Shown here: one piece after another, positions 3,572 to 48,298 of the stretch
How the letters are laid out: the number at the start of each line of letters is the position of its first letter
Numbering within the stretch: the first letter of the stretch is position 1
IMG/VR virus record: IMGVR_UViG_3300033565_000024
From: a virus
Length of the DNA: 48,298 nucleotides
Reading direction: 5' to 3' (one strand)
Notes under the pieces: generated by a model
What the model saw: the letters and a program-made list of their open reading frames with translations, nothing else
Databases searched by the model: none
Told to the model about the DNA's origin: nothing
Made by a program: the position numbers and the translations under genes

Positions 3572-6190
3572 ATGAAGACATATACAGAATTCCTGAGAAA
3601 CAAAATAAAACTTGCGCCAAAGAACGGGTTCGAACTGGATATCGAAGAAATCAACCCCGCACTCAAACCGCACAACAAAATAATGGTCAAGTGGCTTGTA
3701 GAAGGTGGCCGCAGAGCTTGTTTCGCATCCTTCGGGTTGCATAAGACAGTCACACAACTTGAAGCTGTCAGATGTACGCTATTGAAGGCAGGCGGAGGCA
3801 TGGGATTAATAGTTTGTCCCCTGAACGTAAAGCAAGAATTTTTTGAAGATTCGAAAAACATTTTGGGATGGAAAACACCTCCGAAATTCATCAGGCGAAT
3901 TGAAGAAACAAGCGGAGACGGCATTTATATCACCAACTATGAAAGCATACGCGACGGCAAACTTGACCCTCGACATTTTAAAGCTGCTTCGCTGGATGAA
4001 GCTTCCATACTTCGCGGGCTGGGTGGTTCAAAAACTTTTCGTGAATTTATGAGGTTGTTTACCGGTGATGCTGGACCGATGGGTTCGCGCCGTGGAGCTG
4101 ATATGATAAAATACCGTTTTGTTGCCACGGCCACTCCTTCACCAAACGATTATATTGAGCTTCTTGCTTATGCTGATTTTCTGGGAGTGATGGATGTAAG
4201 TCAGGCTAAAACCAGGTTCTTTAAGCGCGATTCAACTCAGGCTGATAAATTAACGCTTCACGCACACAAGGAAGACGAATTCTGGCTTTGGGTTTCGTCA
4301 TGGGCCTTATTCACCAGCAAGCCTTCAGATATTACGCTCAACGAAGAAGATGATCTTGGTTACATTTTACCGGAACTGGATCTTCGCTGGCACGAACTTC
4401 CAACCGACCACATCAATGCCGGAATGGAAAAGGATGGACAACAGTATAAAATGTTCAAAGATGCCAGCCTTGGAATCCAGGAAGCTGCAAAAGAAAAGCG
4501 CGACAGCCTAAATGAACGTATTGCCAAAATGATGGAATTAAGACTGGAAAATATTGGCGCACACAGGATTATATGGCATGATCTGGAAGCTGAGAGATAT
4601 GCGATTGAAAAAGCAATTCCAACTGCAATTTCAATTTTCGGTTCACAGGATTACGAAAATCGCGAAGAGGCAATTCTGGGATTTACACATGGTGATTTTC
4701 AGGAACTGGCTGCAAAACCTGTTATTGCCGGTTCCGGGTGCAACTTTCAGCGACACTGCAGCTGGGCAATATACCTTGGGATTGGATTCAAGTTCAATGA
4801 CTTCATTCAGTCTGTTCACCGGTTGCAAAGATTTCTGCAAAAGAACACAGTTAGGATTGATTTGATCTATACAGAATCGGAGGTAAACGTTCGTAAATCG
4901 CTTGAAAAGAAATGGGTTAATCACAATAAAATGGTTTTAAAAATGACTGAAATAATTAAAAAGTATGGCCTTTCTCACTCAGAAATGGCACAGGTGTTAA
5001 GCCGTAAAATCGGAGTTGAAAGGGTTGAAATTACAGGGCGCAATTTCGTCGCAGTTAATAATGACAATGTTGAAGAGCTGGCCGATACAAAAAGGATAAA
5101 AGACAATTCAGTTGGATTGATCCTGACATCAATTCCCTTTTCAACTCAATATGAATACTCCCCAAATTATGCCGATTTCGGGCACTCAGAAAGCAATGAA
5201 GAGTTTTTCAGGCAAATGGATTACCTCACTCCAAATCTTTATCGTGTGCTTATGCCTGGCAGAATTGCGGCTATTCATGTAAAAGATCGTATTATTCCAA
5301 TGGGTTTGTCCGGAATGGGGTGCCAGACAGTTTACCCGTTTCACATGGATTGCATTCAGCATTACACAAAACACGGATTCGCATACATGGGAATGAAAAC
5401 CATTGTAACAGATGTAGTAAGGGAGAACAATCAGACTTACCGCCTCGGATGGACCGAGCAATGCAAGGATGGAACAAAGATGGGTGTTGGTATGCCTGAA
5501 TACCTGCTTTATTTCCGTAAGCCACAAACAGACTTAACAAATGCTTATGCAGATGTTCCTGTAATGAAGGCGAAAAAGGATTGGAAGCGTGAAAATCAGG
5601 AGTGGATAAATCCTAATGGTTATTCTCGCGCACGTTGGCAGATGGATGCAGCCGGATACACCCGCAGCTCAGGAAACAGGGGTATAACTCCAGAAGAACT
5701 TGCAAGCATGGAGCCTGACAAGATTTTCAAATGGTTTCGCGATTATACCAAAAATGAAATTTGGGATTTTGAATACATCGTAAAAATCGCCGAAACGCTC
5801 AAAATGCGGGGAAAGCTTCCTTCGGGGTTCATGTTACTTCAACCGGCCAGTTGGACTGATGAAGTATGGACAGATGTTACCCGCATGAGAACGCTGAATG
5901 GTAGCCAGTGGAGCAACGGAAAGGAAATGCACCTATGCCCTATGCAGTTTGATATTGCAGACCGTGTAATTGAGCAAATGAGTAATCCGGGAGATATAGT
6001 ATTGGATCCTTTCGCAGGTCTTTTCACAACACCATACCGGGCATTGTTGAAAGGCCGAAAAGGTTACGGAATTGAGCTCAGTAATCCCTATTTTCTTGAT
6101 GGAGTTGTTTACTGCAAATCAGCTGAACACGAAGCAAGTATGCCTACCCTGTTTGATATGCTCGAAATGCAGGAAAAGATTTCCGCATAA
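3572..6190 (+). CDS. SNF2-like helicase fused to a beta-class N6A/N4C DNA methyltransferase
   Basis: N-terminal half: FGLHKT (degenerate Walker A), LDEASILRG (DEAx box), VATATPSPNDYIELL (motif III), helicase-C-like GSGCNFQ...QSVHRLQRF. C-terminal half: motif IV LTSIPFSTQYEY then motif I VLDPFAGLFTT...GYGIELS. Confidence 0.8.
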   Translation: MKTYTEFLRNKIKLAPKNGFELDIEEINPALKPHNKIMVKWLVEGGRRACFASFGLHKTVTQLEAVRCTLLKAGGGMGLIVCPLNVKQEFFEDSKNILGWKTPPKFIRRIEETSGDGIYITNYESIRDGKLDPRHFKAASLDEASILRGLGGSKTFREFMRLFTGDAGPMGSRRGADMIKYRFVATATPSPNDYIELLAYADFLGVMDVSQAKTRFFKRDSTQADKLTLHAHKEDEFWLWVSSWALFTSKPSDITLNEEDDLGYILPELDLRWHELPTDHINAGMEKDGQQYKMFKDASLGIQEAAKEKRDSLNERIAKMMELRLENIGAHRIIWHDLEAERYAIEKAIPTAISIFGSQDYENREEAILGFTHGDFQELAAKPVIAGSGCNFQRHCSWAIYLGIGFKFNDFIQSVHRLQRFLQKNTVRIDLIYTESEVNVRKSLEKKWVNHNKMVLKMTEIIKKYGLSHSEMAQVLSRKIGVERVEITGRNFVAVNNDNVEELADTKRIKDNSVGLILTSIPFSTQYEYSPNYADFGHSESNEEFFRQMDYLTPNLYRVLMPGRIAAIHVKDRIIPMGLSGMGCQTVYPFHMDCIQHYTKHGFAYMGMKTIVTDVVRENNQTYRLGWTEQCKDGTKMGVGMPEYLLYFRKPQTDLTNAYADVPVMKAKKDWKRENQEWINPNGYSRARWQMDAAGYTRSSGNRGITPEELASMEPDKIFKWFRDYTKNEIWDFEYIVKIAETLKMRGKLPSGFMLLQPASWTDEVWTDVTRMRTLNGSQWSNGKEMHLCPMQFDIADRVIEQMSNPGDIVLDPFAGLFTTPYRALLKGRKGYGIELSNPYFLDGVVYCKSAEHEASMPTLFDMLEMQEKISA

Positions 6191-8441: not shown

Positions 8442-8473
8442 TAGTCTATCAGACAATTTCAACCGTATATTTG
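8442..8473 (+). promoter_or_regulatory. Palindrome TAGTCTATCAGACAA + 9 bp + -7 box TATATTTG (promoter of replication module)
   Basis: Palindrome 8442-8456, TAnnTTTG 8466-8473. Confidence 0.6.
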
Positions 8474-35964: not shown

Positions 35965-37473
35965 ATGTTAGATACATTAATTGGGGTATCTCCTTTCGCG
36001 CGCCTTGGGACAAATTTGAACTATCCGGTTTCTGCTATTGTGGAAGATAATCAACCGGATAAAGTGGTTGTTACATTTACAAATGCAGATACATCACTTT
36101 TGGCTTCGGATTTTACTATTGCAGGATTTACGGTTAGTTCCCTTGCAAGGGATGTAACTAATAAGATACTTACGTTAAGCCTATCAACTCAATTTGAATA
36201 TGGTAGGGTTGCTACACTTGTGTTGAAGGGTAAATCCTATTCAATAACTAACAATGTCGAATATCTTACAGCCCTTAAAAACGCTGTTGTTGCCTCAAAT
36301 ATAGTATCATATTTCCCGATGAATGAAGTTTCGGGAACAACAATGGTTGATTCAGTTAACGCTCGTAATGGTGAATTTGTTGATGTAACGCTTAATCAAG
36401 CAGGTTTCATAAAGGGAAAATCAATACTGTTTCCTGGATTAGATTCAGCAGGTGATTTATATGCAGCCATAGCAGCCATGAATAAAAACGAGGGTGCTAT
36501 AATTATTAACGTGAAGCACACACAAACACCTAATGTTTCAGTTTCGTATAGGGCAACTGATATAAACGACTGGCCTTCATTAAGCTATAACCCAACAGAT
36601 AAGAAAATGTACTTCAATTCTGTTTATGGTGGTGTTGGAGCGTTGGCAGGATTTCACTATTATGGGAATACCGAATGGATGCAAATATGCATTACATGGT
36701 CTGTTAGTGCTAATACTGCAAAGGTTTTTGTCAATGGATTACCGGCTGATCCTATTCCAAGCGTTTCACTGGCTGGTAGATCATGGAGTGGAACATTAAG
36801 AAATGATCTTTGTGCAATAGGTAACGAAAGAAAATCGGGTTCACAAAACAAAGCGTCAAGAGGGTATTATTCACACGTTGCAGTTATTAATAAATATGTA
36901 ACTGAAAGCGATTTGCGCAAAATATATCCTTACAATCAGGTAATATTTGCAGGCGACAGCAGGACAGAGGGCGAAATTTACCCCACAAAGGCAGTTGCCG
37001 ATTCCCTTGTAGCATTCAGAAACAAGGCAGTTGCAGGAATATCAACTGCAACATCTATAACCGCAGCGGCAGTAAATGTCGATGCTTTTTATCGTGCTGA
37101 TGTGAAAAACATATGTGTAATGTGGTGCGGTGTAAATGATGGCACAAGTGCAGCACAGACTTATGCAGATTTAAGAACATATTGTTTAGCCCGCAAGGCG
37201 GTTGGTTTTAAAACTATCATCTGTACTGAAATAGATGCTCAGGATGCTTCAAGAAATTCAGTAAACTGGAATTCAACATACATGCCTGCCCTTAATGTAC
37301 TTTTAAAAGCAGATCATTCTTTTGCTGATGGATTTGCAGATTTAAGCGCAAATGCAAATTTGATGGATGCGAATAATACCACCTACTTTAATGTAGATAA
37401 AGTACACTTAACCGATGCCGGATACAGTGAAGTTGCGGCAGTTGTAAAGCCTGTAATTGCTTCACTGCTTTAG
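35965..37473 (+). CDS. Tail fiber/spike with LamG-like lectin domain and C-terminal SGNH/GDSL esterase
   Basis: FPMNEVSGTTMVDSVNARNG (LamG-type). Block I VIFAGDSRTEG, block III MWCGVNDG, block V DKVHLTDAGY. Confidence 0.7.
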   Translation: MLDTLIGVSPFARLGTNLNYPVSAIVEDNQPDKVVVTFTNADTSLLASDFTIAGFTVSSLARDVTNKILTLSLSTQFEYGRVATLVLKGKSYSITNNVEYLTALKNAVVASNIVSYFPMNEVSGTTMVDSVNARNGEFVDVTLNQAGFIKGKSILFPGLDSAGDLYAAIAAMNKNEGAIIINVKHTQTPNVSVSYRATDINDWPSLSYNPTDKKMYFNSVYGGVGALAGFHYYGNTEWMQICITWSVSANTAKVFVNGLPADPIPSVSLAGRSWSGTLRNDLCAIGNERKSGSQNKASRGYYSHVAVINKYVTESDLRKIYPYNQVIFAGDSRTEGEIYPTKAVADSLVAFRNKAVAGISTATSITAAAVNVDAFYRADVKNICVMWCGVNDGTSAAQTYADLRTYCLARKAVGFKTIICTEIDAQDASRNSVNWNSTYMPALNVLLKADHSFADGFADLSANANLMDANNTTYFNVDKVHLTDAGYSEVAAVVKPVIASLL

Positions 37474-37491
37474 TTCCAATTTGGAACTTTT
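37473..37491 (+). terminator. Short palindromic hairpin gttccaa/ttggaac + tttt
   Basis: Directly overlaps the stop of the esterase gene. Confidence 0.35.
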
Positions 37492-37888: not shown

Positions 37889-37918
37889 TTGTCCTTTAGA
37901 CAATATATTGTATATTTG
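37889..37918 (+). promoter_or_regulatory. Palindrome TTGTCCTTTAGACAA + 7 bp + TATATTTG (promoter of recombinase leader)
   Basis: 37889-37903 and 37911-37918. Confidence 0.55.
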
Positions 37919-37963
37919 TGACGTTCAACTTTCGAAATAAAATCTTCCTATTTAATCAGAGCT

Positions 37964-38031
37964 TAGCCCTGAGTGTGCTGTAACCCGTAAGGAACAGACG
38001 GTCTCGAAAGCCGGAACAACACTCAGGGCTA
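37964..38031 (+). ncRNA. Structured 5' leader element: 13-bp closing stem around two GNRA-capped hairpins
   Basis: tagccctgagtgt (37964-37976) pairs perfectly with acactcagggcta (38019-38031). Inside: ctgt..cc-GTAA-gg..acag and cgg...c-GAAA-g.ccg. Flanked by direct GCTTAG repeats. Confidence 0.45.
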
Positions 38032-38054
38032 TTGCTTAGGGGGGAATTACAAAC

Positions 38055-39047
38055 ATGAATACCGCTTTAAGATTGGTGCCATCCGGAATACAGGTTTCCG
38101 GGAAACGAGATTATGTAAACAAGCTTAACAGCTTAGAACCTAAATATGGGGTTCAGTTCTCAGACTTCATAGAAATTACGATAAACAGGAAAGCAAGGCG
38201 GATGGGTGAAAACTACAAAGCCAACTACATAACCCTGATTAATCACTTGACGAAATTTGCAGAAATTAACGATGCTGTCATTTATACAAATAGCATCAAT
38301 GAGGAGTTCCTTGATGATTTCATTATTTACCTGCAGGATCAAAACTTGAAACAGGCATATATAAAGAACCTTGTCTCCCTGGTTAAATCCATGGCTAAAA
38401 AAGCCGGCATATCTGGATACGCAGTTGACATTTCTTATGATGATGTGATGGTGGATGATGAGGAATCGTTCTCTGTTTATTTGTCGCTCAATGAAATAGC
38501 AAGAATATACTTTTTTAAGGGTCTTACCAAAAAACAAGAAAGGATCCGTGATTTATTTATTGTTGGATGCCTTACAGCTTTGAGGTTTTCAGACTACTCT
38601 ACGCTTACAAAGGATAATTTCTCTAAAGATTTTATTACTAAGGTTACTAAGAAAACCGGCAAAAAGGTGATTATTCCAATTCATGATTATGTGCGTGAAA
38701 TTTACGAAAAGTATGACGGCCAGATAAGCCCGGGTATAACAAACCAGCATTTTAACAGGTATGTTAAAAAGATTTGCAAGCTGGTCGGGTTAAATGATAG
38801 TGTGACTTTCAATTATACCCGTGGCGGGAACCTGATCACTGAAACAAAACAAAAATGGGAAATGATTTCAAGCCATACAGCACGAAGAAGCGCTGCAACA
38901 AACATGTACCTGACAGGACGGATGAAAACATACGAAATAATGTCGATAACCGGACATACTACAGAGAAAAGCTTTTTCAGGTACATAAAAATTACAGGCG
39001 AAGACATATCAAAGCATATTGCCGGGGATACATTTTTTAAAAAGTAA
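38055..39047 (+). CDS. Tyrosine recombinase (short, no arm-binding N-terminal domain)
   Basis: LTALRFSD (Arg I), SSHTARRSAATNM (H-x-x-R), ITGHTTEKSFFRYIK (His...Tyr). Confidence 0.85.
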   Translation: MNTALRLVPSGIQVSGKRDYVNKLNSLEPKYGVQFSDFIEITINRKARRMGENYKANYITLINHLTKFAEINDAVIYTNSINEEFLDDFIIYLQDQNLKQAYIKNLVSLVKSMAKKAGISGYAVDISYDDVMVDDEESFSVYLSLNEIARIYFFKGLTKKQERIRDLFIVGCLTALRFSDYSTLTKDNFSKDFITKVTKKTGKKVIIPIHDYVREIYEKYDGQISPGITNQHFNRYVKKICKLVGLNDSVTFNYTRGGNLITETKQKWEMISSHTARRSAATNMYLTGRMKTYEIMSITGHTTEKSFFRYIKITGEDISKHIAGDTFFKK

Positions 39048-39761: not shown

Positions 39762-39833
39762 TGCGAGGTGGAGCAGAGGTAGCTCGTTGGACTCATAATC
39801 CGAAGGTCGTAGGTTCGAATCCTGCCTTCGCTA
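39762..39833 (+). tRNA. tRNA(CAT), initiator-like (fMet-type) scaffold
   Basis: Anticodon loop ctCATaa (CAT 39794-39796). 1:72 mismatch (U.U). A11:U24 in the D stem. Runs TGGAGCAG..GGTAGCTCGT and CTCATAA.CCGAAGGTCGT.GGTTCGAATCC closely resemble E. coli tRNA-fMet. Anticodon stem has GGA/UCC instead of GGG/CCC. Confidence 0.85.
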
Positions 39834-39954
39834 CAAATTTTTAAATAGAGGATCGGCACCATTGGTGTAACCCGATCAGGACAGCGGGGCAATTCCTACC
39901 CAGCAAAGAGTGAGGGATTATCCAGGACTCACAAGCAGACGAAAGAGAACCCGG

Positions 39955-41244
39955 TTATTGTGCTGGGTTTTCGCTTTTAAAGAAAGGATGATCTTTTGCT
40001 TTCATTGCAAACTGCAGGCTACTTGCTTTAATGTATTTCCTGAATTGCTTTTCGGTTGTATGCCCGGAAAACGACATGATTACAGGTACCTCAATACCGG
40101 CAAGAAACATATTTGTACATCCTGAGCGCCTGGCCGTGTGCGTTGAAATCAGCTCCCACTTTTCATAAACATTCCTTTCCTTACCGCTGATCATGGAGGT
40201 GGTGATCTCAATCTTTTGATTAAGCTTTGCCATTTTTCCCAGTACCTTCAGCTGCTTGTTCATCTTTTGATTGGATACCGGCCCCGGCAATACATTGTTT
40301 CGCCTGGTCAATATTTCACGTATAACCGGATGCATGGGGATGGTGGTTTTAATCCCAGTCTTTTCACTTATATGCGAAATGTACTGATCATCATTTTTCA
40401 ATCCTTTCAAAACTGAATAGTCACCAAACCTCAGAGCTGTATATGCACCGACCATAAACCGGTCCCGGCAATCAATTAATGATTTTATTGCGCGGTCAAC
40501 ATTTCCTGTAACATTCAAAATCACAAGCTTGTAATGCTCCAGAATTAGCTTTTCATCAATCACAAGGTCTGAAATCTTTTTCAGTTCGATTTCATCCAGA
40601 TAAATTGAATCGCTATCGGCCGATACATTTGTGAAATCATCAGGAAGAAATAAATTGTGTATCCCGTTTGAACGGCCGGCTTTAAAAAACACCTTCAAAT
40701 TTTTGATCAGATCACCGTGAGTGTTTGTCGAATAACCCTTTGCGCCAGACCACTTCAACAGCTCGTTGTATAACTCCATATTTACATCTGAAAACAGGAT
40801 CCTTTGCTTACTATATTTTTCAAACTCCTTTAATGTGTTCAGGGTGGTCAGGTATCTTTTTACTGTGTTTTTTGCCCTTGTCAGGGTAGGGTAGTATCTT
40901 TCTATGAAATCAGTTAGATATTCGCTCTGTGGGGCAGATTTGCTCGGATTCAGATAATTTTCGACAGCTGCAGAGAACTCTTTTGGGGTTGGAATTTTGG
41001 CACATGAAATAAACTGTTCTGAAATTTCCTGAATTGCCTTTTCTAATGTGTCCAGCCGCCCGTTTATAATGAACGCATCCTCATAGCCTTTGATCTCCCT
41101 GGCACGTTGTGATTTCTGATTCCAGTATTTCTCCTTTACAGATATCCCTGCAGGAAATTTATATCGGTTCCCTGAAAAGCGGACAATTGCATCAATTGAG
41201 CTTACATCCCTTTTGTTTGCAAGGTAAAAACCGACTTTGATCAT
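39955..41244 (-). CDS. int: Tyrosine integrase with N-terminal arm-binding and SAM-like domains (Bacteroidota phage/CTn type)
   Basis: 429 aa. YTALRFGD (Arg I), STHTARRSGCTNM (H-x-x-R), FSGHTTEKQFRKYIK (His...Tyr). Adjacent to a tRNA gene. Confidence 0.9.
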   Translation of the reverse strand: MIKVGFYLANKRDVSSIDAIVRFSGNRYKFPAGISVKEKYWNQKSQRAREIKGYEDAFIINGRLDTLEKAIQEISEQFISCAKIPTPKEFSAAVENYLNPSKSAPQSEYLTDFIERYYPTLTRAKNTVKRYLTTLNTLKEFEKYSKQRILFSDVNMELYNELLKWSGAKGYSTNTHGDLIKNLKVFFKAGRSNGIHNLFLPDDFTNVSADSDSIYLDEIELKKISDLVIDEKLILEHYKLVILNVTGNVDRAIKSLIDCRDRFMVGAYTALRFGDYSVLKGLKNDDQYISHISEKTGIKTTIPMHPVIREILTRRNNVLPGPVSNQKMNKQLKVLGKMAKLNQKIEITTSMISGKERNVYEKWELISTHTARRSGCTNMFLAGIEVPVIMSFSGHTTEKQFRKYIKASSLQFAMKAKDHPFFKSENPAQ

Positions 41245-47962: not shown

Positions 47963-48298
47963 ATGCAATACATAATCAAAAAAGCAAAAATCAAAGACAT
48001 GACCCTTACGGTCGAAATGGAAGAAATCATTTATCCTGAAAACGCAAGTCCCATCACAAATGATGTGACAAAGAAATCAGATCAGCTGATTCATGAAGAT
48101 CTGAGAGCTGCATTTGATAAGCTTATACCCCACCTGGTGCATATCTGCGAACAGAAAGAGGCTGGAGTGGCTGAGCTAAAATTTTCACGCGAAAACTTAG
48201 AACTTGAACCAGAAGAATTAGCCGAACAAGCACTCCTCCCATATAGTGTAACCGGCTTCGTTATCGGTGGAAGTAACGAACACCTTGGAGTAACCCTC
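47963..48298 (+). CDS. Hypothetical protein, 5' part of the wrap-around ORF (continues at 2..451)
   Basis: ATG 47963 (MQYIIKKAKIKDMTL...), open to the window end. Same frame as 2..451 through the 127-bp overlap. Confidence 0.6.
   Translation, partial: MQYIIKKAKIKDMTLTVEMEEIIYPENASPITNDVTKKSDQLIHEDLRAAFDKLIPHLVHICEQKEAGVAELKFSRENLELEPEELAEQALLPYSVTGFVIGGSNEHLGVTL
48172..48298. repeat. Terminal overlap identical to 1..127
   Basis: Direct comparison of both ends. Confidence 0.95.

Follow-up and report, generated by a model that had tools for sequence, protein, structure and literature searches.

In phages P1 and P7, access of ribosomes to the ant mRNA is blocked at its ribosome site by the c4 RNA, which underlies the heteroimmunity between the two phages (PMC12197685). 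In P4, the antisense RNA CI is processed from an untranslated leader and pairs with seqA upstream and with seqC downstream (PMC4825925). IsrK, from the Salmonella prophage Gifsy-1, belongs to a read-through mRNA that is translationally silent, its ribosome site being buried in structure, and it activates translation (PMC4825925). A further motif, c4-2, was described by Weinberg et al. in 2017 (PMC5737381) and, as far as could be found, it is a computational motif only, with no assigned target. Here, an RNA of this kind is reported from the virus record IMGVR_UViG_3300033565_000024, a DNA of 48,298 nucleotides (nt) that is referred to below as the window. It lies in the leader (37919-38054) of a short tyrosine recombinase gene (38055-39047, + strand, start codon ATG at 38055) whose product has 330 amino acids (aa). 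The element is probably a divergent member of c4-2, which represents the Bacteroidota-phage branch of the c4/CI phage antisense RNAs, and is likely to exert antisense control over the recombinase.

The initial annotation of this leader had described a perfect 13-bp helix closing a 42-nt insert that contains two hairpins, and had considered it a structured RNA. This three-way junction is indeed the minimum-energy fold of 37919-38054 in RNAfold (-41.2 kcal/mol, z = -3.19), its energy being matched by 1 of 200 dinucleotide shuffles. The RNA covers ca. 80 nt of the + strand (37959-38037), as supported by its Rfam match, a covariance model of our own and covariation (see below). In its closing helix, P1, TAGCCCTGAGTGT (37964-37976) is the exact reverse complement of ACACTCAGGGCTA (38019-38031), with 42 nt enclosed, and a P1 extension pairs 37959-37962 with 38034-38037. 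P2 (37978-37997; CTGT-AAC-CC[GTAA]GG-A-ACAG) carries the GTAA loop that had been proposed as one of two GNRA loops. The other one did not hold, P3 (37999-38013; CGG-TCTCGAAAG-CCG) being better read as a 9-nt loop (38002-38010) than as a C-GAAA-G tetraloop; in relatives the P3 loops have 7-10 nt and display no GNRA constraint. The junction strand J3/1 occupies 38014-38018. Direct GCTTAG repeats (37961-37966 and 38034-38039) and a G-run (38039-38044) 10 nt before the ATG had also been pointed out; both are present, with no conservation of the repeats among relatives.

The G-run falls within a Shine-Dalgarno-like (SD) sequence, GGGGGGAA (38039-38046, + strand), located 8 nt before the start codon and aligning with AGGAGGA in relatives. 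A pyrimidine stretch, TCTTCCT (37943-37949, + strand), is predicted to act as an anti-SD by pairing with GGGGGGA at 38039-38045. This pairing is present in the minimum-energy folds, with AUCCUUA/UAGGAGGAU and UCUUCCUA/UAGGAGGAA as the equivalents in relatives, and the ribosome-binding region beneath P1 is accordingly predicted as paired by the folding model.

The element had been left without a known Rfam class. When 96 nt (37950-38045) were searched, they matched RF02944 (c4-2) with 33.9 bits and an E-value of 3.7e-6, and positions 1-79 of the model aligned end to end with 37964-38033. This score does not reach the curated gathering score of 41 bits. The first Rfam scans, of the whole window at the gathering threshold and of 601 nt at E<=10, were silent at this site; in the 601-nt scan, speed filters presumably dropped the match. 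Divergent c4-2 copies of this kind score beneath the Rfam threshold and are missed by standard annotation scans. In Rfam, RF02944 is entered as c4-2, type sRNA (small RNA), in clan CL00128, to which the antisense RNA c4 of P1 and P7 belongs.

Related loci (type A) were gathered from close recombinase relatives in IMG/VR and JGI metagenomes and by two DNA-pattern scans that ignored gene context. This gave 9 distinct versions, to which an exact-protein look-up added 2 more (L238 and L239), for a total of about 11. Each of the 9 versions ends ca. 20 nt before the start of a recombinase that is 61-72% identical to that of the window. At all loci, including those of a second type described below, the c4-2-like RNA is on the sense strand and ends 17-23 nt 5' of the start codon. 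There is one copy of the fold per locus searched. Many recombinase relatives do not have the RNA element, and there the gene directly follows its upstream neighbour. RNAalifold, run on a structure-blind MAFFT alignment of the 9 type-A sequences, recovered P1 with its 4-bp extension, P2 and P3. In this alignment, 95.7% of the cells are paired versus 36-47% when the partners are slid, double (compensatory) changes occur in 7 pairs, and the covariation score was reached by none of 500 shuffles. All three helices show covariation; the sequence of P2 is free to vary among relatives and that of P1 is well conserved. Pyrimidines located 3' of P1 in type A pair with GGGGCG, extending P1. A conserved, genuine structured RNA thus precedes this recombinase, as initially annotated.

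Which nucleic acid the fold concerns can be read from the strands. The type-A helices contain many G-U pairs, which would be A-C on the opposite strand, and a covariance model built from type-A sequences only (R1) scores 72.9 bits on the + strand of the window versus 26.0 bits on the - strand; together these indicate that the fold is that of an RNA on the recombinase-sense strand. They also bear on a reading at the DNA level, in which a perfect 13-bp inverted repeat beside a recombinase gene, with a well conserved P1 sequence, would be a target to which the recombinase or a regulator binds, namely an att site, an operator or an invertible segment. The A-C mismatches that the G-U pairs would leave, the strong strand asymmetry of the model scores, the co-variation of helices that are not palindromic and the occurrence of the same cassette in front of non-recombinase genes all argue against this, as does the 42-bp spacer, which is too short for a recombination substrate, so that a DNA element appears hardly tenable.

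R1 further gave a weak match (21.8 bits) just 5' of a recombinase only 28% identical to that of the window (locus L034). Relatives of the L034 gene yielded about 25 distinct leaders (type B), and R1 finds type-B leaders with 16-23 bits (E 0.01-0.4) at the same place before the gene. Against the c4-2 model itself, the type-B loci L187, L167 and L190 score 44.2, 41.2 and 40.7 bits, respectively, and the type-A locus L013 scores 32.6 bits. Since R1 was derived from type A alone and yet finds type B, the homology of the window's RNA to bona fide c4-2 members is independent of the Rfam model. In an alignment of 22 type-B leaders, 97.1% of the cells are paired and double changes are found in 14 pairs; an additional type-B helix, P0 (GUAUCUGC/GCAGAUAC), is 88% paired with little covariation and is a prediction only. 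Both types have the same layout, with a promoter, two boxes (a1 and b1, see below) and the junction. No copy was found in the databases sampled: R1 had no match in 151 Bacteroidales genomes and 3 metagenome-assembled genomes, no true R1 match was found among 100 checked of at least 120 pattern matches listed in a scan of genome contigs, and the GenBank phages sampled contained no DNA similar to the window region except short pieces of the recombinase, and none similar to a type-B leader.

Two U-runs set type B apart, neither of which occurs in type A. One of the type-B runs comes with a hairpin located between the boxes and the junction, and the other directly follows P1 (AUAUUUAUU or AUAUUUUUUU). 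The hairpin, GAUGCCGCC...GGUGGCAU followed by UUUGUUGUAU (UAUUUUUGUAU in L217, L234 and L235), is found for instance at 1330-1370 of L167. Placed between a1-b1 and the c4-2 RNA, it has the look of a leader terminator, the use of which could depend on antisense pairing by analogy with P4. The U-run behind P1 and the earlier hairpin would also suit a branched intrinsic terminator or attenuator before the recombinase gene. In the window, however, no T or U tract is found 3' of the P1 helix (UAUUGCUUAGGGGGG; the RNA reads GGGCUA-UUGCUUAGGGGGG), in agreement with the earlier view that this is not a simple terminator; the type-A pyrimidines at this place are engaged with GGGGCG, and in relatives the upstream operon is provided with a canonical terminator of its own. 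A terminating role for the junction is thus very improbable. The separate canonical terminator upstream in relatives also led us to reject the element as the terminator of the upstream operon.

A further feature of these leaders is a pair of short complementarities between the junction and the upstream boxes. In the window, box a1 (GTTC, 37923-37926) is complementary to an element a' (GAAC, 38014-38017) located in J3/1, and box b1 (CTTTCGA, 37929-37935) to an element b' (TCGAAAG, 38004-38010) located in the P3 loop, all on the + strand. The two segments, 37923-37935 and 38004-38017, form a bipartite duplex of -12.4 kcal/mol in RNAduplex, in which b1/b' is a 7-nt Watson-Crick match; shuffling the 50-nt target region 1000 times gave an equal match in 6 cases. 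Every leader has a 6-10-nt Watson-Crick complement of its P3 loop at a fixed upstream distance (type A, about -125 to -133; type B, about -173 to -177), and a 4-6-nt box a1, 2-5 nt 5' of b1, that pairs with J3/1. The same bipartite geometry was found in 8 of 8 type-A leaders tested, with a mean of -13.2 kcal/mol for the own leader versus -5.8 kcal/mol for cross-pairs.

Across all relatives, both of these contacts co-vary. The type-A a1/a' pairs include GUUC/GAAC (window), GGGA/UCCC, UGGAG/CUCCA, GUGCUA/UAGCAC, GAUA/UAUC, GGCA/UGCC and GCUA/UAGC, and J3/1, which reads GAACA, CUCCC, CUCCA, UAGCAC, UAUCG, UGCCG, AACCG or UACCAA, changes along with a1. The two leaders fetched by protein identity served as out-of-sample cases, and both presented new matching variants (GGUU/AACC with UUUUCGA/UCGAAAA in L239; UGGUA/UACCA with UUUUCGAA/UUCGAAAA in L238). 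In the b1/b' helix of 22 type-B sequences, both sides have changed in 7 of 10 pairs and 98.6% of the cells are paired. Type-B duplexes range from -18 to -24 kcal/mol and the own leader is the best partner for 9 of the 11 loops tested, the two exceptions being a loop for which a close relative nearly tied and an extraction error (L217). Column entropy in type B amounts to 1.07-1.08 bits in the variable b1 and b' cores versus 0.29 in the rest of the leader. That the contact bases form the most variable columns in a leader which is conserved elsewhere suggests selection for distinct specificities; 7 distinct matched box/loop pairs occur in type B, which offers at least 7 natural orthogonal RNA/target pairs in nearly identical leaders. 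The likely targets of c4-2 RNAs can thus be read from sequence, as co-varying 5' boxes and, in some phages, as a second copy over the ribosome site. Elsewhere in the window, 14 sites match the P3 loop with up to 2 mismatches versus 9.8 expected by chance, one being the loop's own complement, and none of the sites examined is at a gene start.

With J3/1 varying together with box a1, and the P3 loop being antisense, the control exerted by the element is most likely one of RNA-RNA base pairing and not of ligand sensing. A riboswitch-like or protein-binding aptamer that would sense a ligand to control the recombinase, close to what the initial annotation had in mind, finds some appeal in a three-way junction within a 5' leader and in an SD-hiding helix resembling an expression platform. 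It does not sit well with junction strands that are unconserved, J3/1 having at least 8 variants that track a1, nor with a P2 whose sequence is free to vary, an annotated GNRA loop that turned out to be the antisense loop, and a best Rfam match to an sRNA family instead of a riboswitch; such an aptamer is considered very unlikely. A hammerhead or other ribozyme core was rejected as well, there being no Rfam match to one and the CUGAG stretch being paired inside P1.

The proposed promoter at 37889-37918 is plausible. It associates a palindrome, ATTGTC-N4-GACAAT (37889-37904, + strand), which belongs to the phage's own promoter type and is a putative operator or activator site, with a -7 box, TATATTTG (37911-37918, + strand). 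This box fits TAnnTTTG, the -7 consensus of Bacteroides promoters. Within the window, the repeat families D1/D2 consist of TTGTCTnnnAGACAA followed by a -7 box and have at least 6 further copies besides that at 37889. The phage promoter family combines a palindrome TTGTC-N5-GACAA (TTGTCT-N3-AGACAA) with TAnnTTTG and is found at 8442, 12387, 14361, 19609, 32611 and 39049; the promoter of the recombinase leader is a variant with a 4-nt palindrome gap and a tighter spacing to the box. Leaders of relatives have plain -33/-7 promoters instead of this palindrome type. The host is apparently a member of the Bacteroidota, judging only from the type of promoter and from the domain families of the integrase.

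The TAnnTTTG box ends 4-5 nt 5' of a1 in the window, and the same holds for L239 and for every type-B leader examined; L239 and type B have in addition a -33 TTTG. With the -7 box only a few nt away, a1-b1 would be the extreme 5' end of the transcript, the start of which is predicted near 37923. Another possible, proximal promoter was not adopted: in most type-A relatives a TAnnTTTG ends 5-6 nt 5' of P1, and it is without a -33 TTTG, runs into the P1 extension GGGGCG/YGCYUY and, in the window, is degenerate.

In four loci (L004, L019, L217 and L235) the boxes occur a second time, as a2-b2, over the SD and the bases before the AUG, with duplexes of -11.5 to -15.1 kcal/mol; in L217 and L235, full a2-b2 copies abut the start codon. 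No a2-b2 copy was found in the window, nor in the other type-A and the recombinase-linked type-B leaders tested, and the best downstream duplex of the window (-8.0 kcal/mol) has a different geometry. The direct repeats that flank the promoter and the junction in L004 and L019 had been considered as signs of a mobile-cassette insertion, a candidate that was rejected in favour of reading them as a1b1/a2b2 target duplicates.

Taken together with c4, CI and IsrK, these features suggest the following scheme. Transcription would begin just 3' of the -7 box (37911-37918), and the predicted transcript would successively contain a1, b1, the anti-SD (37943-37949), the junction (37959-38037), the SD (38039-38046) and the start codon (38055). 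The junction RNA would accumulate either after being cut from the leader, possibly by RNase P, the enzyme that processes c4 and CI, or else, for type B, by ending at the U-run behind P1. It would then pair in a phage-specific manner with a1-b1 on leader transcripts and, in relatives having a2-b2, also over the SD and the bases before the AUG. Once the RNA is present, the recombinase would be kept off, so that the enzyme would be made in a short burst only. In the window, which has no a2-b2, the effect would have to run through a1-b1 and the SD-hiding helix. That a small RNA is released or accumulates, that it acts in trans and that repression is the outcome is what we infer from the analogy, which provides a testable model for how temperate Bacteroidota phages may restrict a recombinase.

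Several points weigh against this scheme. The window copy lies under the Rfam gathering threshold and went unreported in the two first scans, and its a1/a' contact is 4 bp long only. The transcription start is a prediction, and a start located 3' of 37923 would exclude a1 from the RNA. Because the window has no a2-b2, a block of the ribosome site as classically exerted by c4 is not directly applicable. Which direction the control takes is itself an extrapolation, and the relative IsrK activates its own read-through mRNA (PMC4825925). Finally, a1-b1 and a'-b' share one transcript, so that the contacts could be purely intramolecular. The leader would in that case act in cis only: a1-b1 would fold back as a pseudoknot on its own P3 loop and junction and, together with the anti-SD/SD helix, set the translation of the recombinase or the stability of its mRNA, with no small RNA acting in trans. 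This is the main alternative; all partners are indeed contained in one predicted transcript with a1-b1 at its extreme 5' end, the SD is predicted to be paired, and the window and most type-A leaders have no second target. It accounts less well for type-B contact bases whose variability far exceeds that of the leader around them, for the duplication of a-b over the start site in several relatives, as in the trans-acting c4 and CI, and for the filing of c4-2 as an sRNA gene in Rfam. A purely cis-acting leader is therefore regarded as rather unlikely, the highly variable contact bases and, in relatives, the a2-b2 duplicates tending to favour a trans-acting, phage-specific regulator.

The window itself corresponds to a circularly closed genome of 48,171 bp, as its bases 1-127 are identical to 48172-48298 (an exact 127-bp terminal repeat). 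The product of the gene behind the leader had been described as a second, arm-less tyrosine recombinase. This agrees with its domain content (Pfam PF13102 Phage_int_SAM_5, 1.9e-10; PF00589 Phage_integrase, 1.9e-08), with its match to PHROG 1 'integrase' (1.6e-24) and with its length of 330 aa, which, judging from the sequence, leaves no space for an arm-binding N-domain. It has 1455 relatives at E <= 1e-20. Genes behind the c4-2 RNA are mostly this conserved short tyrosine recombinase, which accompanies an ordinary integrase. A long integrase (open frame of 412-441 aa) occurs together with the short recombinase in all 5 related phage records examined (G154-G158), and that of the window is encoded at 39955-41244 on the - strand. 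The same pair is also found in L237 and L239, and the two genes are convergent neighbours in type A. In the prophage L237, carried by a 4.59-Mb chromosome, the short gene is 1.6 kb inside the arm-binding long integrase that borders host genes, with no room for the RNA upstream. Both recombinase genes of this prophage being at the same end beside host genes, an attP located between two convergent recombinase genes was left without support and rejected.

A pattern scan that ignored gene content revealed the type-B cassette before three other genes, in L234 (reverse complement, 5815-5883), L235 (reverse complement, 825-891) and L217 (9757-9825). The genes behind these cassettes encode an IS605 OrfB/TnpB-like N-terminus (PF12323, 5.6e-07), a repeat protein of 556 aa that weakly matches GIY-YIG (PHROG 20046) and a protein of 151 aa. 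As the same cassette also precedes genes that are not recombinases, the earlier suggestion that the element might be an RNA cofactor for the recombinase is unlikely.

Other features of these genomes were recorded. A conserved palindrome GTTC-N7-GAAC (e.g. TTAGTTCACCTTTGGAAC), shaped like the core site of a tyrosine recombinase, precedes the short recombinase where the late operon ends; it occurs in the window (37473-37487) and in L002, L005, L021, L026, L032, L033 and L239, with or without the c4-2 RNA. It could be a substrate of the short recombinase. A single match in the window is no more than chance would give (0.58 expected). In the recombinase of L007/L012 (IMGVR_UViG_3300021166_000099), codon 13 reads TGA in frame, in place of the GGA (Gly) of relatives, and no other damage to the frame is seen; a pseudogene, an error of sequencing or recoding could account for it. 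A tRNA-like gene at 495-600 of the window (+ strand) scores 45.1 bits against the Rfam tRNA model and was not called by ARAGORN. Its acceptor, D and T arms are intact, ca. 43-54 nt replace the anticodon arm, and its 3' part is similar to that of the tRNA-Met at 39762-39834 (repeat D9). The gene may represent an interrupted tRNA, the tRNA-like remnant of an att site or another element.

A broader and speculative view, to which we give little credence at present, is that c4-2 RNAs are phage-specific 'immunity' RNAs gating enzymes that cut or rearrange DNA (short recombinase, TnpB/OrfB-like, GIY-YIG-like), with an own a/b address for each lineage and with the short recombinase as a switch enzyme licensed only in the absence of the RNA. 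If so, the short recombinase would serve for instance in excision or commitment, and c4-2 would add a level of RNA control to the choice between lysis and lysogeny made by Bacteroidota phages, unlike the antirepressor control of P1.

Compared with described systems, the element is closest to c4-2 (RF02944; PMC5737381), with which it shares the three-way junction with a long closing stem, a P2 that is bulged on its 5' side and capped by a GNRA loop, a P3 loop of ca. 9 nt and an A/G-rich J3/1. It departs from this family by a continuous 13-bp P1 without the internal loop (UAU/UAA), by an AAC/A internal loop in P2, and by the SD and anti-SD stretches that flank the RNA. IsrK, like the window's RNA in the scheme above, acts on its own mRNA; it differs in being an activator and in having its pairing partners downstream, in orf45. 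We take IsrK to be a member of the C4 family. As to P4, the a-b duplicates of L004, L019, L217 and L235 reproduce the arrangement seqA-CI-seqC, and type-B leaders resemble that of CI in carrying, on either side of the RNA, terminator-like hairpins with U-runs; the outcome in P4 is a premature termination of transcription before the replication genes, whereas the leader in the window has no terminator-like U-run. The c4 RNA of P1 and P7 (Rfam C4, RF01695) is part of a layout a1 b1 - c4 - a2 b2 - icd/ant (PMC12197685). The window has in common with it an RNA in the same-strand leader of the operon that would be controlled, two short antisense elements and matching upstream boxes, and in L004, L019, L217 and L235 boxes are also present downstream, over the ribosome-binding site. 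It differs by having upstream boxes only, by one antisense element being in the junction strand and not in a hairpin loop, by a gene that encodes a tyrosine recombinase and not an antirepressor, and by a host that is apparently a member of the Bacteroidota and not of the Enterobacteria. The variable contact bases of the c4-2 leaders are consistent with a phage-specific immunity such as that existing between P1 and P7 (PMC12197685).

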